A program made the translations under genes and the position numbers. Positions 1 through 12,496 of a stretch of 64,000 nt of DNA are shown here, piece by piece. The notes beneath the pieces are model-generated. The model did not search any database, was not told the DNA's origin, and was given only the letters and a program-made list of their open reading frames with translations. Where the stretch lies: assembly GCF_046105845.1 (NCBI RefSeq), contig NZ_CP151004.1, one strand, 5' to 3'. Position 1 is the first letter of the stretch, and the number at the start of each line of letters is the position of its first letter. Source of the DNA: Escherichia coli. Lineage in GTDB: Bacteria > Pseudomonadota > Gammaproteobacteria > Enterobacterales > Enterobacteriaceae.

Positions 1-858
<858 letters not shown>

Positions 859-908
859 TTATTTAAGCACTTGATAAATTTGGAAATATTAATTTTCGGA
901 GAACCCGT

Positions 909-2372
909 ATGTCTTTAGCAAAAGATAATATATGGAAACTATTGGCCCCACTGGTGGTGATGGGCGTCATGTTTCTTATCCCTGTCCCCGACGGTATGCC
1001 ACCGCAGGCATGGCATTACTTCGCTGTGTTTGTGGCAATGATTGTCGGCATGATCCTTGAGCCAATTCCGGCAACAGCGATCAGTTTTATTGCGGTTACT
1101 ATTTGCGTTATTGGCAGTAATTACCTGCTCTTTGATGCCAAAGAATTAGCTGACCCAGCGTTTAATGCGCAAAAACAGGCGCTGAAATGGGGTCTGGCTG
1201 GTTTTTCCAGCACCACGGTATGGCTGGTATTTGGCGCATTTATTTTTGCATTAGGGTATGAAGTTTCCGGGTTAGGTCGTCGCATTGCCCTTTTCCTGGT
1301 GAAATTCATGGGCAAACGCACGCTGACGTTGGGTTATGCGATTGTCATTATCGACATTCTGCTGGCACCGTTTACACCGTCCAACACCGCGCGTACTGGC
1401 GGGACCGTTTTTCCGGTCATTAAAAACCTGCCGCCGTTATTTAAATCATTCCCCAACGATCCGTCTTCCCGTCGCATTGGTGGTTATTTGATGTGGATGA
1501 TGGTCATTAGTACCAGTCTGAGTTCTTCCATGTTTGTCACCGGTGCGGCACCAAACGTGCTGGGTCTGGAGTTCGTCAGCAAAATTGCCGGTATCCAGAT
1601 TAGCTGGTTGCAGTGGTTCCTCTGCTTCCTGCCGGTTGGGGTTATCTTGCTTATCATTGCGCCGTGGCTTTCCTACGTGCTGTACAAACCGGAAATCACA
1701 CACAGTGAAGAAGTGGCAACCTGGGCGGGTGATGAACTAAAAACCATGGGTGCGCTGACACGCAGAGAGTGGACGCTGATTGGCCTTGTATTGCTCAGCT
1801 TAGGTTTGTGGGTATTTGGCAGTGAAGTCATTAATGCTACTGCGGTAGGTCTGCTGGCAGTTTCGCTAATGCTGGCCCTGCACGTTGTGCCGTGGAAAGA
1901 CATTACCCGCTATAACAGCGCATGGAACACGCTGGTCAACCTGGCAACTCTGGTTGTGATGGCTAACGGCCTGACTCGTTCTGGTTTTATTGACTGGTTC
2001 GCTGATACCATGAGTACGCACCTGGAAGGATTCTCACCAAACGCAACGGTGATTGTACTGGTTCTGGTGTTCTACTTTGCACACTACCTGTTTGCCAGCC
2101 TGTCTGCGCACACCGCAACCATGCTGCCGGTTATTCTGGCCGTCGGTAAAGGTATTCCGGGCGTACCAATGGAACAACTGTGTATCCTGCTGGTGCTGTC
2201 TATCGGTATCATGGGCTGTCTGACGCCGTATGCAACCGGTCCTGGGGTGATTATTTACGGCTGTGGCTATGTGAAATCAAAAGATTACTGGCGACTTGGT
2301 GCAATCTTCGGGGTGATTTACATCTCTATGCTGCTGTTGGTTGGCTGGCCGATTCTCGCCATGTGGAACTAA
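909..2372 (+). CDS. citT: Citrate/succinate antiporter CitT
   Basis: 487 aa polytopic membrane protein ORF, recognised as CitT; synteny citG-citT-rna. Confidence 0.9.
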   Translation: MSLAKDNIWKLLAPLVVMGVMFLIPVPDGMPPQAWHYFAVFVAMIVGMILEPIPATAISFIAVTICVIGSNYLLFDAKELADPAFNAQKQALKWGLAGFSSTTVWLVFGAFIFALGYEVSGLGRRIALFLVKFMGKRTLTLGYAIVIIDILLAPFTPSNTARTGGTVFPVIKNLPPLFKSFPNDPSSRRIGGYLMWMMVISTSLSSSMFVTGAAPNVLGLEFVSKIAGIQISWLQWFLCFLPVGVILLIIAPWLSYVLYKPEITHSEEVATWAGDELKTMGALTRREWTLIGLVLLSLGLWVFGSEVINATAVGLLAVSLMLALHVVPWKDITRYNSAWNTLVNLATLVVMANGLTRSGFIDWFADTMSTHLEGFSPNATVIVLVLVFYFAHYLFASLSAHTATMLPVILAVGKGIPGVPMEQLCILLVLSIGIMGCLTPYATGPGVIIYGCGYVKSKDYWRLGAIFGVIYISMLLLVGWPILAMWN

Positions 2373-2403
2373 TACGTTCGCCAAACGCTGAATAAATCAT
2401 CAC

Positions 2404-2437
2404 GCCCGCCAGGTAAGCCCACCTGGCGGGCTTTTTT
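2404..2437 (+). terminator. Rho-independent terminator downstream of citT
   Basis: Inverted repeat gcccgccagg / cctggcgggc followed by a T-run, directly after the citT stop codon. Confidence 0.7.
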
Positions 2438-2485
2438 ATGATTTAATAGATAGTATTCAGTATATGTATGAGTTCCACACCCATT

Positions 2486-3292
2486 ATGAAAGCATTCTGG
2501 CGTAACGCCGCGTTGCTCGCGGTTTCTCTGCTTCCCTTCTCTTCTGCCAACGCCGTGGCGTTGCAGGCAAAACAGTATGGCGATTTTGATCGCTATGTCC
2601 TGGCCCTCTCCTGGCAAACCGGATTTTGCCAGAGTCAACACGATCGAAATCGTAACGAACGAGATGAATGTCGCCTGCAAACCGAAACGACCAACAAAGC
2701 TGATTTTCTGACCGTACATGGTCTGTGGCCAGGATTGCCTAAATCGGTTGCTGCCCGTGGTGTTGATGAACGCCGCTGGATGCGCTTCGGTTGCGCTACT
2801 CGCCCAATCCCGAATCTGCCAGAAGCACGCGCCAGCCGGATGTGTTCATCGCCGGAAACCGGGTTATCACTGGAAACGGCAGCTAAACTAAGTGAAGTCA
2901 TGCCAGGAGCTGGCGGACGTTCCTGCCTGGAACGCTACGAATATGCCAAACACGGTGCCTGCTTTGGTTTTGATCCAGACGCATACTTCGGCACGATGGT
3001 ACGCCTGAATCAAGAAATTAAAGAGAGCGAAGCCGGAAAATTCCTTGCGGATAACTACGGTAAAACAGTGAGCCGCCGTGACTTTGACGCCGCCTTTGCC
3101 AAAAGCTGGGGAAAAGAGAACGTGAAAGCAGTTAAGCTAACATGCCAGGGTAACCCTGCGTATTTGACTGAAATTCAGATCTCGATCAAAGCTGACGCCA
3201 TCAACGCTCCGCTTTCTGCCAACTCATTCTTGCCACAACCACACCCAGGCAACTGTGGCAAAACCTTTGTGATTGATAAAGCAGGTTATTAA
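2486..3292 (+). CDS. rna: Periplasmic ribonuclease I
   Basis: ORF 2468..3292; chosen start at the MKAFWRNAALLAVSLLPFSSANA signal peptide gives 268 aa, matching RNase I as recalled. Confidence 0.9.
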   Translation: MKAFWRNAALLAVSLLPFSSANAVALQAKQYGDFDRYVLALSWQTGFCQSQHDRNRNERDECRLQTETTNKADFLTVHGLWPGLPKSVAARGVDERRWMRFGCATRPIPNLPEARASRMCSSPETGLSLETAAKLSEVMPGAGGRSCLERYEYAKHGACFGFDPDAYFGTMVRLNQEIKESEAGKFLADNYGKTVSRRDFDAAFAKSWGKENVKAVKLTCQGNPAYLTEIQISIKADAINAPLSANSFLPQPHPGNCGKTFVIDKAGY

Positions 3293-3440
3293 TCCTCTGA
3301 TTTACAAAAGACGCTAATTCGTCTTCCATAAACCATGACGATTAAGATTTATACATAATGCGCTGCATTGAGGAATTCCCTGAATGTGACGCAAATCACT
3401 TCAAAGAGTGAGCAACAGTCAGTATCATCATGTGAGTTAA

Positions 3441-3474
3441 ACCCTCGCCGCCTGACGGTGAGGGTTTTCTTTTG
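3441..3474 (+). terminator. Candidate rho-independent terminator in the rna-rnk spacer
   Basis: Imperfect hairpin accctcgccg / cggtgagggt followed by tttcttttg, about 150 nt downstream of the rna stop. Confidence 0.5.
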
Positions 3475-3521
3475 GGTATGTTTATCTGCGACACTCGCAG
3501 TACCGACGACATGGAGTAAAA

Positions 3522-3932
3522 ATGTCCAGACCAACTATCATCATTAACGACCTGGATGCCGAACGCATCGATATTCTGCTGGAGCAACCCGCCTATGCTG
3601 GTTTGCCAATCGCCGACGCGTTAAACGCAGAGTTGGATCGCGCCCAAATGTGTTCGCCAGAAGAGATGCCACACGACGTGGTGACAATGAACAGCCGGGT
3701 TAAATTCCGCAATCTTAGCGATGGCGAAGTGCGTGTGCGCACGCTGGTGTATCCGGCAAAAATGACCGACAGCAATACTCAGCTTTCCGTTATGGCTCCG
3801 GTAGGTGCCGCACTGCTGGGGCTGCGCGTTGGCGATTCCATTCACTGGGAACTTCCGGGCGGCGTTGCAACCCACCTTGAAGTGCTGGAACTCGAATACC
3901 AGCCAGAAGCTGCTGGCGACTACCTGCTTTAA
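3522..3932 (+). CDS. rnk: Regulator of nucleoside diphosphate kinase Rnk (GreA/GreB-like)
   Basis: 136 aa ORF recognised as Rnk; synteny. Confidence 0.9.
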
Positions 3933-3965
3933 TCCCATCTGCACAAGCGATAACTCGCTTTGCCC

Positions 3966-3987
3966 AGAGGATGCACTCGCATCCTCT
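3966..3987 (+). terminator. Hairpin downstream of rnk (candidate terminator)
   Basis: Perfect 9-bp stem agaggatgc / gcatcctct with a 4-nt loop, about 35 nt after the rnk stop; the U-tract is weak. Confidence 0.45.
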
Positions 3988-4074
3988 TTCCGCTCAAATA
4001 TCAACCAGATTTATCATTTTGCTCTTAAGCGCAGCATTCTAATCTGAACTGGTTATTCATCTGCGGAACCTCAT

Positions 4075-4164
4075 ATGAGCGAAGCTCTCGGTATCACTGC
4101 ATTTTATATATTCATAGCCGCAATTATTGTTGCTGCAGTGCTATACCTTGAACAACGCTGGTAG
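4075..4164 (+). CDS. Candidate small hydrophobic protein (29 aa, MSEALGITAFYIFIAAIIVAAVLYLEQRW), hypothetical
   Basis: ATG-initiated 30-codon frame in the rnk-uspG spacer encoding one predicted transmembrane helix; weak GGAA upstream; contains rare ata and cta codons. Sequence-only prediction. Confidence 0.25.
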   Translation: MSEALGITAFYIFIAAIIVAAVLYLEQRW

Positions 4165-4287
4165 CGCCTGGTTTTATTTATTTTCCAGCTCAATAGCAAA
4201 TTCAGATCAAATCAGCCTCGCAAATCATAGATTCATAACCAATAATGTGCTGTTATGTATACATGCAAAAACAAGGAGAGAATGCTT

Positions 4288-4716
4288 ATGTACAAAACAA
4301 TCATCATGCCAGTTGATGTATTTGAAATGGAATTGAGCGACAAAGCGGTTCGCCACGCTGAATTCCTCGCCCAGGATGACGGAGTTATTCATCTACTTCA
4401 CGTACTACCGGGGTCAGCCAGCCTGAGCCTGCACCGTTTTGCCGCTGATGTACGTCGTTTTGAAGAGCATCTGCAACATGAAGCAGAAGAACGTTTGCAA
4501 ACGATGGTCAGCCACTTCACCATCGATCCTTCCCGCATTAAACAACATGTCCGTTTTGGTAGCGTGCGGGATGAAGTTAACGAGTTAGCGAAAGAACTTG
4601 ATGCAGATGTAGTAGTGATTGGTTCGCGTAACCCATCAATTTCAACTCATCTGTTGGGTTCTAACGCCTCGAGCGTGATCCGCCACGCCAATTTGCCGGT
4701 GCTGGTTGTGCGTTAA
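4288..4716 (+). CDS. uspG: Universal stress protein G
   Basis: ORF 4255..4716; start chosen at [11 protein letters not shown] to give 142 aa matching UspG as recalled. Confidence 0.9.
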
Positions 4717-4774
4717 TTGCCAGAATAAGTATCCCGCCCTGCCCGGAGCCATCCCGGCGGGGCTTTTTATTGCC

Positions 4775-4807
4775 ATAAAAAAGCCGCCAGGTTTGACCCC
4801 GGCGGCT
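4775..4807 (-). terminator. Rho-independent terminator downstream of ahpF
   Basis: Stem agccgcc / ggcggct with a 12-nt loop; on the minus strand it is followed by a U-tract (plus-strand ataaaaa). A second structured GC-rich hairpin plus T-run around 4732..4771 probably terminates uspG on the plus strand. Confidence 0.6.
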
Positions 4808-4836
4808 AAGCAATTGCAGGTGAATCTTACTTCTTC

Positions 4837-6402
4837 TTATGCTGTTTTGGTGCGAATCAGGTAGTCAAAAGCACTCAGAGAGGCTTTGGCACCTTCGCCA
4901 GTGGCGATGATGATCTGCTTGTACGGAACCGTTGTACAGTCACCCGCTGCGAACACGCCTTTCACGTTGGTTTCGCATTTCGCATCAATGATAATCTCGC
5001 CCATGCGGTTACGTTCGACTGCGCCTTCGAGCCAGTTGGTGTTCGGCAGCAGACCAATCTGCACGAAAATACCGGCCAGTTCGATGTTGTGAATATCGCC
5101 GCTGACACGATCTCGATATTCCAGACCAATGACTTTGCTGCCGTCGCCTTTCACTTCCGTAGTTTGCGCATTCAGAATAATGTCGACGTTTTTCAGGCTG
5201 CGCAGTTTGTCCTGCAGAACCTGGTCGGCTTTCATTTCTGGCGCAAATTCCAGCAGCGTTACGTGCTCAACGATACCCGCCAGGTCGATTGCCGCTTCCA
5301 CGCCGGAGTTACCGCCGCCGATAACCGCTACGCGTTTGCCTTTAAACAGCGGGCCGTCGCAGTGCGGGCAGTAGGTCACGCCTTTGGTGCGATACTGATC
5401 TTCGCCCGGAACGTTCATGTTGCGCCATTTTGCACCGGTCGCCACGATAATGCTGCGTGCTTTCAGTACCGCGCCAGAAGCTGTTTCAATCTGATGCAGA
5501 CCACCTTCAACCGCTGCCGGGATCAGTTTGCTGGCGCTCTGGCTGTCGATCACATCAACGTCGTATTCATCAACGTGAACTTTCAGCGCTCCTGCCAGCT
5601 TCTGCCCTTCAGTCTTCGGTACAGAAATGTAGTTTTCGATATCAACGGTATCGAGGATCTGACCACCAAAACGTTCGCCCATCAGACCAGTACGGATGCC
5701 TTTACGTGCGGAGTAAATTGCTGCCGCTGCACCCGCTGGGCCGGAACCGACGATTAATACGTCATAAGCATCACGCTTGTTCAGCTCTTCTGCCGCACGT
5801 TTTTCCGCGCCAGTATCAATTTTGGCGACGATTTCAGTCAACGTCATGCGACCCTGACCAAACTCTTTCCCGTTTACGAATACTGCCGGAACGCCCATCA
5901 CGTTGCGATCGGTGATTTCGTTCTGGAAGGTACCTCCGTCAATTGCAGTGTGCTTGATGCGCGGGTTCAGTACGCTCATCAGGTTCAGCGCCTGCACCAC
6001 ATCCGGGCAGTTGTGGCAAGAGAGCGAGTAATAGGTTTCGAATTCAAAATCACCGTCAATATGGCGAATCTGCTCCAGCAGAGACTGCGCTTCTTTCGAC
6101 GGATGACCACCGGTCCACAACAACGCCAGTACCAGCGAGGTAAACTCGTGGCCCAGCGGGGAACCTGCAAAACGTGGCCCCTGGTTAGAACCTGGGTTAG
6201 TGATCAGGAAAGACGGCTTACGCACCGGCAAGCTGTTATCTTCTTTAAAGGTGACTTTGTCTGACAGTTCTGCGATTTCAGCCAACAGTTCCTTGATTTC
6301 TGCCGATTTAGCGCTGTCATCCAGCGTGGCAATTAACTCAACAGGCTTGGTCAATTTCTCAAGGTAAGCCTTGAGTTGAGTTTTCATATTTGTGTCGAGC
6401 AT
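4837..6402 (-). CDS. ahpF: Alkyl hydroperoxide reductase subunit F
   Basis: ORF 4837..6432; start trimmed to MLDTNMKTQ to give 521 aa; two CxxC motifs are visible in the translation. Confidence 0.93.
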
Positions 6403-6572
6403 GTTTATCTCCTGGGCTTTAAACATCATCATGCAAGCGGCCTCTGCGGCTACCTGGATGCAGCTTGCATCATGGTGCGGGGAAGAAAATCGGGTGCCGC
6501 AGCACCCGAAGAATTAGGTGAATTTCCGAAGTATTTCGCGCCGGAGTTGGTAGCGCGAAAGACGAAGGAAAT

Positions 6573-7136
6573 TTAGATTTTACCAACCAGGTCCAGAGAC
6601 GGAGCCAGAGTTGCTTCACCTTCTTTCCATTTAGCCGGGCAAACTTCACCTGGGTGAGAAGCTACGTACTGTGCTGCTTTGATTTTACGCAGCAGGTCAG
6701 ACGCGTCACGGCCAATGCCTTCAGCGGTAACTTCGATTGCCTGGATGATACCCTGCGGGTCAACAACGAAGGTCGCACGGTCAGCCAGACCTTCATCTTC
6801 ACGCATGTTGTCGAAGTTACGGGTCAGGGCGCCAGTCGGGTCGCCGATCATCGCATATTTGATTTTAGCGATGGTTTCAGAGCTGCTGTGCCATGCTTTG
6901 TGGGTGAAATGAGTATCGGTAGATACTGCGTATACGTCTACGCCCAGTTTCTGCAGTTCTTCGTAGTGGTCAGCAACGTCACCCAGTTCGGTCGGGCATA
7001 CGAAAGTAAAGTCAGCCGGGTAGAAGAAGAAGACGCTCCAGCGGCCTTCGGTATCTTTTTCGGTGATTTCGATGAATTCGCCGTTTTTGAATGCCTGGTT
7101 TTTAAAAGGTTTAATTTTGGTGTTAATCAAGGACAT
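6573..7136 (-). CDS. ahpC: Alkyl hydroperoxide reductase subunit C (peroxiredoxin)
   Basis: 187 aa ORF recognised as AhpC; followed by ahpF. Confidence 0.95.
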
Positions 7137-7507
7137 CTATACTTCCTCCGTGTTTTCGATGAGATGTAAGGTAACCAATTTTTGCCGATTCGGCTAATGC
7201 GTTTCCATTATCAAATCGATAAGTTTTACCTTACAACCTTCGTAAGACAACTTTGTGAACTTTGCACCGCCAGCGGCGATAAAAAGTAAAATGGCCCCCT
7301 TTCCAGGTGACCGTGTAATCTGAACTACCCTTTGGTATCTTCAGCGCCTGCCTGCAGGCTGAGGTGTTGCCCTTACAAATGCAACAACGACATGGATTAC
7401 AACACCCTCATAAACAAAGGGCAATCACCTGATCTAAGCTCTTACCTATGACAGTGATAGGTTATGCCTTTTACTCGACTTTTGCACTGACTGAAAAGGA
7501 CAAATTA
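7137..7507. promoter_or_regulatory. Divergent ahpC / dsbG control region (OxyR-regulated promoters expected here)
   Basis: Intergenic region between the divergently oriented ahpC and dsbG; OxyR control of ahpCF and dsbG is established knowledge. The exact operator was not mapped from the sequence. Confidence 0.4.
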
Positions 7508-8254
7508 ATGTTAAAAAAGATACTTTTACTGGCTCTGCTTCCTGCAATCGCCTTCGCAGAGGAACTTCCTGATCCAGTAAAAGCGATTGAAAAACAGGGC
7601 ATTACAATCATCAAAACGTTCGATGCTCCCGGAGGAATGAAAGGTTATCTCGGCAAGTATCAGGATATGGGCGTCACCATCTACCTGACTCCAGATGGTA
7701 AGCACGCTATCTCTGGTTACATGTACAACGAGAAAGGTGAAAACCTGAGTAACACACTTATCGAAAAAGAAATTTACGCACCAGCCGGACGCGAAATGTG
7801 GCAACGGATGGAACAATCCCACTGGCTCCTCGACGGTAAAAAAGACGCGCCGGTCATTGTCTACGTCTTCGCCGATCCGTTCTGCCCATATTGTAAACAG
7901 TTCTGGCAGCAGGCTCGTCCGTGGGTAGATTCTGGCAAAGTGCAATTAAGAACATTGTTGGTTGGGGTTATCAAACCAGAAAGCCCGGCGACAGCAGCGG
8001 CAATTCTTGCCTCCAAAGATCCCGCAAAAACCTGGCAAGAATATGAAGCCTCTGGTGGCAAGCTTAAGCTAAACGTGCCTGCAAACGTAAGTACAGAGCA
8101 AATGAAAGTGTTAAGCGACAACGAGAAACTCATGGACGATCTGGGGGCAAATGTCACACCAGCTATCTATTACATGAGTAAGGAGAATACGCTGCAACAG
8201 GCCGTGGGGTTGCCCGATCAGAAAACGCTTAATATCATTATGGGGAATAAATAA
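7508..8254 (+). CDS. dsbG: Periplasmic disulfide isomerase/chaperone DsbG
   Basis: ORF 7448..8254; start chosen at the [17 protein letters not shown] signal peptide (248 aa); CPYC active-site motif is present. Confidence 0.9.
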
Positions 8255-8266
8255 AAGGTAATTCAT

Positions 8267-8302
8267 GGATGGTTGAACTATATCCCTGCTTTTCAACCAT
8301 CC
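8267..8302 (+). terminator. Strong hairpin downstream of dsbG (candidate terminator or boundary element)
   Basis: Perfect 11-bp inverted repeat ggatggttgaa / ttcaaccatcc with a 14-nt loop, 13 nt after the dsbG stop; no clear U-tract. Confidence 0.4.
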
Positions 8303-8463
8303 TAAAAAAGCATGAATTGCTCGCTCTGCCCTAAGTGGCTGTGCTATTTTAGTAAAACTTAATCCTGAGTTAAGCAAAAAAAAATAATCAATAAAAATAT
8401 ATACGCAAAAAAACATTGATTAAGTGAATATATCATGGAAGAAAAATATAACCGGAGTAGTGT

Positions 8464-9366
8464 ATGGCCAATCTCTACGACTTGAAAAAGTTCGACTTAA
8501 ATCTTCTTGTCATATTTGAGTGTATTTATCAGCATTTAAGCATTAGCAAGGCTGCTGAATCACTATATATCACCCCGTCAGCCGTGAGCCAGTCGTTACA
8601 ACGCTTACGTGCGCAATTTAATGACCCTTTATTCATTCGCTCAGGAAAAGGTATCGCGCCGACGACGACAGGGTTAAATCTGCATCACCATCTTGAGAAA
8701 AATCTCAGAGGCCTTGAACAAACAATTAATATAGTCAATAAGTCCGAACTAAAGAAAAACTTTATTATCTACGGTCCTCAGCTCATTTCTTGCTCTAATA
8801 ATAGTATGCTGATCCGCTGCCTACGGCAAGATGCCTCTGTCGAGATTGAGTGCCATGATATCCTCATGTCAGCAGAGAATGCTGAAGAACTGTTGGTTCA
8901 CCGCAAAGCCGATCTGGTGATCACCCAAATGCCAGTGATCAGCCGTTCCGTCATTTGCATGCCATTGCATACAATTCGCAATACTCTAATTTGTAGTATT
9001 AAGCATCCGCGAATTACTGACAATAGCACTTATGAACAAATTATGGCAGAAGAGTTCACCCAATTAATATCCAAATCAGCAGGAGTTGATGATATTCAAA
9101 TGGAAATAGACGAGAAGTTTATGAATCGCAAAATTTCATTTCGTGGTTCCTCTTTGCTGACAATCATTAATAGCATTGCAGTTACAGATTTACTGGGAAT
9201 AGTCCCCTATGAACTTTATAACTCCCACCGTGACTTTCTTAATTTAAAAGAGATAAAACTAGAACATCCGTTACCTTCAATAAAGCTTTACATTTCCTAT
9301 AATAAATCTTCTTTAAACAATCTGGTGTTCTCACGATTTATTGACCGTCTAAATGAGTGTTTTTGA
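8464..9366 (+). CDS. ybdO: LysR-family transcriptional regulator YbdO
   Basis: 300 aa ORF with N-terminal helix-turn-helix typical of LysR regulators; the gene is visibly AT-rich; synteny dsbG-ybdO-ybdN. Confidence 0.85.
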   Translation: MANLYDLKKFDLNLLVIFECIYQHLSISKAAESLYITPSAVSQSLQRLRAQFNDPLFIRSGKGIAPTTTGLNLHHHLEKNLRGLEQTINIVNKSELKKNFIIYGPQLISCSNNSMLIRCLRQDASVEIECHDILMSAENAEELLVHRKADLVITQMPVISRSVICMPLHTIRNTLICSIKHPRITDNSTYEQIMAEEFTQLISKSAGVDDIQMEIDEKFMNRKISFRGSSLLTIINSIAVTDLLGIVPYELYNSHRDFLNLKEIKLEHPLPSIKLYISYNKSSLNNLVFSRFIDRLNECF

Positions 9367-9512
9367 TATATAACTTCAGACAGCTACTATAACTTTCACC
9401 TATTTATTCACAGCGCGAATGAAAAATAAAACACTCTGCTTTTCAGTGTTTACTTTATAATTAACAGTCTTATCTCACTGATCACCCTGTAACGTTCAGA
9501 GAGCGTCTTCAG

Positions 9513-10733
9513 ATGTCTATTTATAAAATTCCTCTTCCGCTCAATATTCTGGAAGCTGCAAAAGAACGTATTACCTGGACACTTAACACCCTACCCCGCG
9601 TTTGTGTCTCATTTTCTGGCGGCAAAGACTCTGGTTTAATGCTGCATCTGACAGCCGAACTTGCTCGACAAATGGGCAAAAAAATCTGTGTTTTGTTTAT
9701 CGACTGGGAGGCGCAATTCTCTTGCACCATTAACTATGTTCAGTCCCTGCGCGAGTTGTACACCGATGTGATCGAAGAGTTTTACTGGGTTGCGCTCCCG
9801 CTTACGACGCAAAATTCCCTTTCACAATACCAACCCGAATGGCAGTGCTGGGAACCTGATGTCGAATGGGTACGTCAGCCCCCGCAAGATGCGATAACCG
9901 ATCCTGACTTTTTCTCCTTTTACCAGCCTGGCATGACCTTCGAACAATTTGTGCGTGAGTTTGCCGAATGGTTTTCGCAAAAACGCCCGGCGGCGATGAT
10001 GATCGGCATCCGTGCGGATGAGTCCTACAACCGTTTTGTCGCCATCGCCAGTTTAAATAAACAACGTTTTGCCGACGATAAACCCTGGACTACGGCCGCA
10101 CCAGGCGGGCATAGCTGGTACATTTACCCCATTTACGACTGGAAAGTGGCTGATATCTGGACCTGGTATGCAAATCATCAAAGTCTCTGCAACCCACTGT
10201 ATAACCTAATGTATCAGGCAGGCGTTCCTCTGCGTCATATGCGAATTTGCGAACCTTTTGGCCCGGAGCAACGACAAGGATTATGGCTCTATCACGTTAT
10301 CGAACCGGATCGCTGGGCTGCTATGTGCGCACGAGTCAGCGGGGTAAAAAGTGGCGGCATTTACGCCGGACATGACAATCATTTTTATGGTCATCGGAAA
10401 ATCCTCAAGCCCGAACATTTAGACTGGCAGGAGTATGCATTATTGCTACTCAACAGCATGCCGGAGAAAACAGCTGAGCATTATCGCAATAAAATCGCCA
10501 TTTATTTGCACTGGTATCAGAAAAAAGGCATCGAGGTTCCACAAACCCAGCAAGGGGACATTGGCGCGAAAGATATCCCCTCCTGGCGGCGAATATGCAA
10601 AGTTTTACTCAATAACGATTACTGGTGTCGGGCATTATCATTTAGCCCGACCAAAGCGAAGAACTATCAGCGTTATAACGAACGAATAAAAGGAAAACGT
10701 CAGGAATGGGGGATACTATGCAACAACGATTAA
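9513..10733 (+). CDS. ybdN: PAPS-reductase-like (adenine nucleotide alpha-hydrolase) protein YbdN, function unknown
   Basis: 406 aa ORF; SGGKDS P-loop motif near the N-terminus; recognised as YbdN (IbrA-like). Confidence 0.85.
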   Translation: MSIYKIPLPLNILEAAKERITWTLNTLPRVCVSFSGGKDSGLMLHLTAELARQMGKKICVLFIDWEAQFSCTINYVQSLRELYTDVIEEFYWVALPLTTQNSLSQYQPEWQCWEPDVEWVRQPPQDAITDPDFFSFYQPGMTFEQFVREFAEWFSQKRPAAMMIGIRADESYNRFVAIASLNKQRFADDKPWTTAAPGGHSWYIYPIYDWKVADIWTWYANHQSLCNPLYNLMYQAGVPLRHMRICEPFGPEQRQGLWLYHVIEPDRWAAMCARVSGVKSGGIYAGHDNHFYGHRKILKPEHLDWQEYALLLLNSMPEKTAEHYRNKIAIYLHWYQKKGIEVPQTQQGDIGAKDIPSWRRICKVLLNNDYWCRALSFSPTKAKNYQRYNERIKGKRQEWGILCNND

Positions 10734-11335
10734 CGCAGGATTTAACCCAATTTCTCGCCAGCTTGCCGGAAGACGATCGCATCAAAGCGATTAATGAAAT
10801 CCGCATGGCGATCCATCAGGTTAGCCCCTTTCGAGAAGAGCCAGTGGATTGCGTTCTGTGGGTTAAAAACAGCCAACTTATGCCTAATGATTACAACCCA
10901 AACAACGTGGCACCACCCGAAAAAAAACTGCTGAAAAAATCCATTGAAATAGATGGTTTTACCCAACCCATTGTGGTCACGCATACGGATAAAAATGCCC
11001 TGGAAATCGTGGATGGTTTTCACCGCCATGAAATTGGTAAAGGCTCATCATCGTTAAAATTACGCTTAAAAGGTTATTTGCCGGTGACCTGTCTGGAAGG
11101 TACGCGTAATCAACGCATCGCCGCGACTATTCGTCATAATCGCGCCCGTGGACGTCACCAAATCACTGCCATGTCAGAAATCGTCCGTGAACTCAGCCAG
11201 TTGGGATGGGACGATCATAAAATCGGCAAAGAGCTGGGAATGGACGGCGACGAAGTGCTGCGCCTGAAGCAAATTAACGGCCTGCAAGAACTGTTTGCCG
11301 ACCGTCAATTTTCCCGCGCCTGGACGGTTAAATAA
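10706..11335 (+). CDS. ybdM: ParB/sulfiredoxin-like domain protein YbdM, function unknown
   Basis: 209 aa ORF overlapping the ybdN 3-prime end by 28 nt (an alternative start at MQQR, 10718, is possible); recognised as YbdM (IbrB-like). Confidence 0.8.
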   Translation: MGDTMQQRLTQDLTQFLASLPEDDRIKAINEIRMAIHQVSPFREEPVDCVLWVKNSQLMPNDYNPNNVAPPEKKLLKKSIEIDGFTQPIVVTHTDKNALEIVDGFHRHEIGKGSSSLKLRLKGYLPVTCLEGTRNQRIAATIRHNRARGRHQITAMSEIVRELSQLGWDDHKIGKELGMDGDEVLRLKQINGLQELFADRQFSRAWTVK

Positions 11336-12496
11336 CTACAGCTGGCGCAGGCGTTCAGCTGCTGCCAGCAACGTCGATTCCTTCTTGGCAAAACAGAGAC
11401 GAATCAGTTTATGGGGGAAGGGATCGGCGCAAAACACCGACAGCGGAATCGCCGCTACACCGTGCTCCCGCGTCAGCCACTGGCAAAACTCAACGTCATC
11501 CAGGGTAGAAACCGCGCTGTAATCCACCAGCAAAAAGTATGTACCTTCACACGGTAAAATCTCCAGCCGGCTTTCATTTAAAGCATTCACCAGAATATCG
11601 CGTTTCTGGCGATAAAAGTCCGGTAACGCAAGATAATGCTCAGGTTCTGCACGTAGCATATCCGCAAGTGCCAGCTGTGCCGGGGTATTCACCGAAAAGG
11701 TCAGATACTGGTGTACCTTGCGAATTTCAGCGCTGATGGGCGCTGGCGCAACGCAATAACCCACTTTCCAGCCGGTCATATGATAGGTCTTGCCAAATGA
11801 AGAAACTGCCACCGCCCGCTCACGCAGCTGCGGATGCGCCAGCACGCTGGCATGGCCCTGTTGTGAAAAGTTGATGTGCTCGTAAACTTCATCGCTAATG
11901 ACAAAAATCTCGTGCCCGCCGATCGCCTGCCACAGAGCGGAGAAATCAGCCTGCTGCCAGACAGTTGCACTGGGGTTATGCGGGGTGTTGAGGATCACCA
12001 GTCGGGTGCGCTCGCTTAACAATGCGGCAAATTCCTGCCAGTCCACGCGAAAATGCGGTGGTTGCAGTGCAATACGTTTCACTATTCCCCCCGAAAGCGC
12101 GATGGCGGGCGCGTAACTGTCATAGCTGGGATCAAAGCAGATCACTTCATCACCATTGCGCACCAATGCGGTAATCGCTGCATATAACGCTTCCGTCGCC
12201 CCTGCCGTTACGGTGATATCGCTATCGGCATCCGGTTGATAGCCATACAGACGTTCCGTTTTCTGAGCAATCGCCTCGCGCAAGGCCTGCACGCCAGTCA
12301 TAGGCGCGTATTGGTTTGCCCCCTGGGCAACGTGGTACGCCAGCCGCTCTTGTAAATAGCGCGGACCATCAAAATCAGGAAAGCCTTGCGAAAGGTTAAT
12401 CGCCTGGTGTTGCTGCGCCAGCGCGCTCATCTGGGTGAAAATAGTGGTGCCAAGTTGTGGAAGTTTGCTTTGTGGAATCAGAGGGTTATTTGTCAT
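11336..12496 (-). CDS. ybdL: PLP-dependent methionine aminotransferase YbdL
   Basis: 386 aa class I aminotransferase ORF; synteny. Confidence 0.9.
   Translation of the reverse strand: MTNNPLIPQSKLPQLGTTIFTQMSALAQQHQAINLSQGFPDFDGPRYLQERLAYHVAQGANQYAPMTGVQALREAIAQKTERLYGYQPDADSDITVTAGATEALYAAITALVRNGDEVICFDPSYDSYAPAIALSGGIVKRIALQPPHFRVDWQEFAALLSERTRLVILNTPHNPSATVWQQADFSALWQAIGGHEIFVISDEVYEHINFSQQGHASVLAHPQLRERAVAVSSFGKTYHMTGWKVGYCVAPAPISAEIRKVHQYLTFSVNTPAQLALADMLRAEPEHYLALPDFYRQKRDILVNALNESRLEILPCEGTYFLLVDYSAVSTLDDVEFCQWLTREHGVAAIPLSVFCADPFPHKLIRLCFAKKESTLLAAAERLRQL

Follow-up and report, generated by a model that had tools for sequence, protein, structure and literature searches.

A 29-codon gene between rnk and uspG of Escherichia coli is very probably yldA, carried on one of two old haplotypes of the locus

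Differences in gene content between conserved flanks are a familiar kind of variation among E. coli strains. In a K-12 derivative, the locus examined here reads rnk, the small gene yldA, ybdR (1239 bp, opposite strand) and uspG. K-12 YbdR is a zinc-dependent alcohol dehydrogenase that carries the Pfam domains ADH_N and ADH_zinc_N. K-12 YldA, with the sequence MAEAFYILIGFLIMAAIIVMAVLYLENHS, belongs to a set of 36 small proteins whose SPA-tagged versions, made from the chromosome, were detected on immunoblots of LB cultures (VanOrsdel et al. 2018, PMC6001520, Table 1). The K-12 yldA-ybdR pair has been listed as a convergent 'excludon' (PMC12288877). Another small membrane protein, YoaI, binds and stimulates EnvZ and has been tagged at its predicted cytoplasmic C-terminus (PMC11429745). 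A literature search on polymorphism of ybdR, covering ybdR, uspG and phylogroup, found nothing relevant.

In this study, we focused on the same locus in a stretch of E. coli DNA of 64 kb, called the window below. An earlier reading of the letters of this DNA (the sequence-only reading) had claimed that ybdR is absent between rnk and uspG, leaving a gap of 355 bp. This claim was borne out by the open reading frame (ORF) list and by tblastn and blastn searches of the window with YbdR, and the K-12 gene order given in that reading was also correct. In the window, rna (2468-3292, + strand) is followed by rnk (3522-3932, + strand), which encodes the nucleoside diphosphate kinase regulator and forms the left conserved flank. 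It is annotated as such by PGAP in identical or near-identical E. coli genomes, and its nucleotide identity to K-12 is 99.8%. The right flank is uspG (universal stress protein G; 4288-4716, + strand, with its ATG at 4288), and ahpF lies beyond it on the other strand (4837-6432, - strand). The spacer between rnk and uspG is therefore positions 3933-4287. K-12 YbdR gave no significant tblastn match in the spacer or in the whole 64-kb window, and a permissive blastn search for a ybdR remnant in the same sequences returned only chance matches of 8-10 nucleotides. Within the spacer, an ORF at 4075-4164 (+ strand; 29 codons plus stop) starts with ATG and encodes the peptide MSEALGITAFYIFIAAIIVAAVLYLEQRW, nearly all of which is a single hydrophobic helix.

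This ORF corresponds to a gene that is already known: yldA has been named, it is annotated in RefSeq with exactly the window sequence, and its K-12 orthologue has been detected experimentally. In E. coli AR_0013, the spacer is 100% identical to that of the window and the product of the ORF is WP_001287361.1. PGAP gives the label 'yldA: small membrane protein YldA' to the ORF in all E. coli genomes with this spacer, about 1820. The window peptide matched the NCBIfam equivalog model for YldA (NF041476) over its full length (1-29) with 59 bits against a cut-off of 45, while its score for the Pfam YldA-like family PF23689 was 22.9 bits, under the gathering score of 27. The gene starts 142 nt past the rnk stop codon in the window and 137 nt past it in K-12, on the same strand in both, and the placement 3' of rnk is the same in all yldA-positive loci. 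Both the coordinates of the ORF and its description as a gene for a small single-helix membrane protein, as proposed from the letters, were upheld. The view that the small ORF occupies the place of ybdR was not, because K-12 also has yldA, between rnk and ybdR. We consider it very probable, at roughly 0.88, that the ORF at 4075-4164 is yldA and that the window carries one of two old rnk-uspG haplotypes. On this reading, window yldA would be a translated gene of 29 residues, and its product, a predicted single-helix inner-membrane protein, would insert into the membrane as a single transmembrane helix.

The boundaries between the window form and the K-12 form are sharp. An alignment to K-12 had been proposed in order to define the limits of the indel, and in the blastn comparison of the two sequences homology was confined to 3300-3993 and 4270-4900. 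It breaks at 3993, just past the 3' hairpin of rnk, and restarts at 4270, 18 nt before the uspG start. The segment between these points (3994-4269, 276 bp) is haplotype-specific. In K-12, its counterpart is a segment of 1611 bp that holds the K-12 allele of yldA, ybdR and the divergent promoter region of ybdR and uspG, and blastn returned no matches between the two segments. The copy in E. coli AR_0013 shows 100% identity to the window segment, and those of E. albertii and two further Escherichia species show 85-97%. Even the yldA alleles are deeply diverged (pS 0.80, pN 0.36), and their proteins are about 52-58% identical. The allele of Citrobacter sp. R56 is closer to that of the window (pS 0.63, pN 0.14) than the K-12 allele is. 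Because the sequence between 3993 and 4270, including yldA, is non-alignable, the difference between the window and K-12 is best described at the sequence level as a cassette replacement, and not as a clean deletion or a simple insertion. The window form is rnk, the window allele of yldA and uspG, and the K-12 form rnk, the K-12 allele of yldA, ybdR and uspG; the cassette ends at the hairpin 3' of rnk on one side and at the ribosome-binding site of uspG on the other.

Both forms are common in E. coli. The window form was found in 1816-1820 of 5426 complete E. coli genomes, about one third, and the K-12-specific segment in 3605. These counts sum to 5421-5425 of the 5426 genomes; the species is thus cleanly split in two, and genomes of the window form do not carry ybdR elsewhere. 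CFT073 and ST131, which we take to be phylogroup B2, have the window form, and K-12, TG1, O104:H4, O103 and O157:H7 bear ybdR. The absence of ybdR is therefore a common and ordinary strain-to-strain dimorphism in gene content. Among E. coli genomes, identity within the K-12 form is 98.4-100% and within the window form 97.8-99.5%, and this similar diversity indicates that neither is a recent arrival. In about 7 of the 3605 genomes of the K-12 type, less than 80% of the K-12 segment is covered. A variant of the segment in E. coli HH97 (NZ_CP116409.1; locus L083, 3577-3921; 89.8% identity) was considered as an old third haplotype and rejected. It is a K-12-type locus with K-12 flanks in which a recent internal deletion of ybdR has left a frameshifted fragment of 192 bp, and the yldA annotation is lengthened there to 46 aa.

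Outside E. coli, we compared 80 rnk loci fetched from species representatives, a sample that does not include E. fergusonii or the main E. coli representative. The window form is common to E. albertii and to two other non-coli Escherichia representatives (L003 and L004). Between E. albertii and the window, the spacer is 85-92% identical, and the flanking genes are 84% (rna), 94% (rnk) and 87% (uspG) identical. In these three Escherichia, the divergence of the spacer is in line with that of the flanks, which indicates that the window form was inherited and not recently introgressed. The window spacer also aligns along its length to the spacers of several Citrobacter (alignment A1). On the other side, ybdR is present at the same locus in 22 loci, from taxa that include Salmonella enterica arizonae and diarizonae, C. 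sedlakii, many Enterobacter, Leclercia, Silvania, Intestinirhabdus and Pseudenterobacter. K-12 ybdR is 81% identical to that of Salmonella, 80% to that of C. sedlakii and 75-78% to those of Enterobacter, and the corresponding values for rnk are 82%, 83% and about 74%. Since the identity of ybdR tracks that of rnk, ybdR is old at this locus and has no close foreign donor. Both states, with and without ybdR, occur within Citrobacter, within Enterobacter and within Lelliottia. We also observed ybdR without a detectable yldA in Salmonella and in several Enterobacter, Leclercia and Silvania loci (L021, L022, L033, L034, L037, L040, L046-L048 and L025); in Salmonella, the gap between rnk and ybdR is only about 90 nt. 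As yldA is present in 36 of the 80 loci and is missing from some that bear ybdR, it is itself an accessory gene.

Several histories could lead to this distribution. The sequence-only reading had offered two, that K-12 gained ybdR or that ybdR was cleanly deleted, and this choice fits poorly, because 276 bp and 1611 bp of non-homologous sequence replace each other, and the exchanged stretch takes in a deeply diverged allele of yldA and a promoter region of uspG that also differs. True deletions of ybdR do exist, as in HH97, and the wide occurrence of ybdR at the locus in other genera means that its absence is derived at some depth. However, a recent clean deletion from a K-12-like locus, in the window strain or a recent ancestor, is effectively excluded. 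The sequence on both sides of such a deletion is non-homologous to K-12, in the 81 bp upstream of yldA and the 105 bp downstream as well as in yldA itself; the window holds no remnant of ybdR; and the orthologous arrangement is found at species-level divergence in E. albertii and two other Escherichia and in one third of E. coli. The real deletion in HH97 looks unlike the window, since the K-12 flanks and the 192-bp fragment remain. The main rival to our leading reading is that the form without ybdR is ancestral for Escherichia, and that homologous recombination in the flanking rnk and uspG sequences brought the cassette of K-12-type yldA and ybdR from another enterobacterium into an ancestor of phylogroups A, B1 and E. 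We regard this acquisition as somewhat unlikely, although all three of the sampled non-coli Escherichia lineages lack ybdR and have window-type yldA, the boundaries of the cassette are sharp and lie in conserved sequence, and the occurrence of both states within Citrobacter, Enterobacter and Lelliottia suggests frequent exchange or loss. Against it, the sampled genera contain no close donor, and ybdR, at 75-81% identity, tracks the flanks as in vertical descent. Diversity within the K-12 type is also about as large as within the window type, and a simple insertion would not have replaced yldA and the uspG promoter region as well. In the two-haplotype reading, which we prefer, the window strain would not have lost ybdR from K-12-like sequence; its lineage would have inherited a long-standing haplotype without ybdR. 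Judged from the sequences, both cassettes appear to be long-standing, and a retained ancestral polymorphism or an ancient replacement by homologous recombination would fit equally. An improbable extension is that the cassettes represent allelic lineages which predate the genus Escherichia and are kept in E. coli by balancing or niche-dependent selection, with a diverged partner specificity of YldA or a difference in uspG regulation.

Alternatives were also weighed for the ORF itself. The window ORF list contains dozens of ORFs of 20-40 aa near yldA, and a lone 29-codon ORF in an AT-rich spacer would be no more than chance; we call yldA real because it is conserved. The weak Shine-Dalgarno sequence before it and the Pfam score below the cut-off also favor a chance frame in a non-coding spacer, but the probability of this is negligible. 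An ORF of exactly 29 codons with an ATG start, and thus the same length, start and stop, is kept in 35 loci of Escherichia, Citrobacter, Enterobacter, Lelliottia, Kosakonia, Phytobacter and Pseudenterobacter. The 35 homologues have in common the C-terminal motif AVLYLE(R/Q/N)(H/R)W; three of them read AVLFLE and two AVIYLE, each with a single conservative substitution of L or Y. The sequence-only reading had named a bias toward synonymous substitutions as a test of the ORF, and such a bias was found: the window gene differs from the three other Escherichia species by 14 synonymous changes and one non-synonymous change (7 and 0 for E. albertii, 3 and 0 for L004, 4 and 1 for L003). About 20 sites of the gene are synonymous and 64 non-synonymous. 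Over the whole family, the third codon position is variable in all 28 codons, the first in 19 and the second in 18, and the pooled pN/pS is 0.38. The synonymous bias and the third-position variation are the signature of a translated gene. The NCBIfam equivalog match above its cut-off and the translation of the K-12 orthologue point in the same direction.

A further suggestion of the sequence-only reading, a type I toxin-like peptide, was not supported. It is very unlikely that yldA encodes such a toxin under the control of an antisense RNA, even though the peptide is short, very hydrophobic and intergenic, and the 3' end of K-12 yldA converges on ybdR in the pair listed as an excludon. Expressed from its native locus, the K-12 protein builds up in LB cultures with no apparent harm. 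The gene occurs once per genome and is strictly syntenic from genus to genus. A tblastn search of 72,556 plasmids with YldA found no match. The Rfam scan for an antisense RNA family gave only a chance sub-threshold match to a snoRNA, though a novel antisense RNA could escape a sequence scan, and no promoter-like site was seen on either strand. With regard to an occluding 5' UTR, there is no significant mRNA structure around the start codon: of 200 shuffles of 4040-4100, 160 were at least as stable as its own fold (-8.2 kcal/mol, z = +0.79). Moreover, purifying selection with a conserved C-terminal motif means that more than composition is kept in the peptide.

The window form has non-coding elements of its own. 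The last element common to both haplotypes is a hairpin 3' of rnk (AGAGGATGC-ACTC-GCATCCTCT; 3966-3987, + strand), found by RNA folding and followed by a weak U tract. Its energy is -15.5 kcal/mol (z = -4.3), none of 200 shuffles was as stable, and alignment A1 shows an invariant stem with a variable loop across Escherichia and Citrobacter. It is probably a leaky terminator of rnk. A conserved non-coding block, AATATCAACCAGATTTATCATT (3997-4018, + strand), lies upstream of yldA as a candidate promoter or operator. In the eight aligned Escherichia and Citrobacter sequences of alignment A1, 20 of its 22 columns are identical; of the other two, one has a single G, in C. amalonaticus, and one is an A/G position (R in the search pattern). 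The block occurs once in the window where 0 copies are expected by chance. It may be a regulator-binding site or a promoter element. It contains two TATCA repeats 13 nt apart and is absent from the K-12 form. Closer to the gene, a putative -10-like hexamer TAATCT (4040-4045, + strand) has no good -35 and is proposed from its conservation: window-type loci have TAATCT or TAACCT, and Enterobacter-type loci have TAATCT or TAATCC at a similar distance from the ATG. A weak Shine-Dalgarno-like GGAA (4065-4068, + strand) is found 6 nt before the ATG of yldA, and GGAA or GGGA/GGGG is kept 5-7 nt upstream in nearly all of the 35 loci. The upstream region of uspG (4225-4287, + strand), with the Shine-Dalgarno sequence AAGGAGA at 4273-4279, is conserved in the window-type loci of Escherichia and Citrobacter (alignment A1).

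The transcription of yldA can be outlined from these elements. A scan of 3880-4800 for consensus promoters and terminators found nothing, including no sigma-70 site; since it also missed the obvious rnk hairpin, the scan is uninformative for this region. The U tract after the rnk hairpin is weak, so that transcripts from rnk may read through into yldA. Alternatively, yldA may have a weak promoter, for which the conserved TAATCT at 4040-4045 would be a candidate. Neither the terminator scan nor RNA folding revealed a terminator or a stable hairpin in the interval from yldA to uspG. Co-transcription is therefore possible, and in the window haplotype transcription may continue from yldA into uspG. 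In C. amalonaticus S646 (locus L014, about 6770-6890), the spacer is otherwise of the window type and has a GC-rich insertion of about 124 bp that contains a palindrome and separates the conserved region upstream of uspG from the Shine-Dalgarno sequence of this gene. This insertion may be a small repetitive or MITE-like element.

Some observations concern the surroundings of the spacer. Window uspG encodes a protein identical to that of K-12 at 139 of 142 residues, but the nucleotide identity is only 93.9%, compared with 98.4% for ahpF. The differences are almost all synonymous and are clustered in the 3' third of the gene, with 17 of 26 between nt 291 and 369. Despite its identical spacer, AR_0013 differs from the window at 22 sites in uspG, 19 of them after nt 290. 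This pattern suggests a mosaic of old alleles, or else a local hotspot of recombination. Positions 1-12000 of the window had no match of at least 99% among the 5426 complete E. coli genomes; the best matches, for example canine strain 1190 and O166:H15, reached only 98.8%, which indicates that the source strain, or such a mosaic of alleles, is not closely represented in the collection. A homologue of rnk with 82% identity to the window was found at 98573-99147 of NZ_LR890350.1 (H30), a non-chromosomal record of 300,631 bp from E. coli MSB1_9D. Other matches of the window region on plasmids were few (6 places), and these plasmid-borne matches could be chromosomal segments captured from another genus.

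The significance of these results is mostly one of annotation hygiene. Beyond this, the residual interest lies in the depth of divergence of two cassettes and two YldA alleles within one species. As the two alleles are deeply diverged and lie in different genetic contexts, findings made on K-12 YldA may not hold for strains with the window form, for example CFT073 and ST131. The similarity between YldA and YoaI also provides a concrete first hypothesis for the function of YldA. With the YoaI model NF041475, window YldA scored 30 bits and K-12 YldA 22.5 bits, both under the cut-off of 45. Conversely, an HMM built from 32 YldA sequences gave YoaI 18.7 bits, against a maximum of 8.7 bits in 1000 composition-matched shuffles. 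This resemblance is a lead for mechanism and not evidence of membership, as it is a sub-threshold match of two very short hydrophobic peptides. By analogy with other small membrane proteins, we tentatively suggest that YldA might bind and modulate a larger inner-membrane protein.

Among the described systems, K-12 YldA is the closest to the window gene. Both have 29 aa and follow rnk on the same strand at a distance of about 140 nt, and in both the sequence M-x-E is followed by a hydrophobic helix and then by AVLYLE-x-x-x. However, only 15 of 29 residues are identical between the alleles (58% over the 26 aligned by BLAST), and their DNA is unalignable. In K-12, yldA and ybdR converge, and 3 nt separate their stop codons, whereas window yldA is followed 123 nt on by uspG, on the same strand and without a terminator. 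Translation has been demonstrated for the K-12 allele. YoaI (34 aa, PhoP/PhoB-linked) resembles YldA in having an acidic residue, a single transmembrane helix and then E-R, and the alignment of the two, E-x-L-x-I-T ... V-L-x-x-E-R, shows a likeness beyond composition. It is encoded at another locus and has an N-terminal extension of its own that is not in YldA, and YldA falls below the cut-off for the YoaI family. The type I toxins Hok, Ldr, Ibs, TisB and ShoB have a patchy, multi-copy or plasmid-borne pattern that yldA does not have. As a polymorphism, the rnk-uspG locus resembles other gene-content differences of E. coli in its sharp edges in conserved flanks, its non-homologous core and its two forms that partition the species. 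It differs from them in that the segment is very small (0.3 versus 1.6 kb) and carries no mobility genes or repeats, and in that both forms keep an orthologous, deeply diverged small gene.
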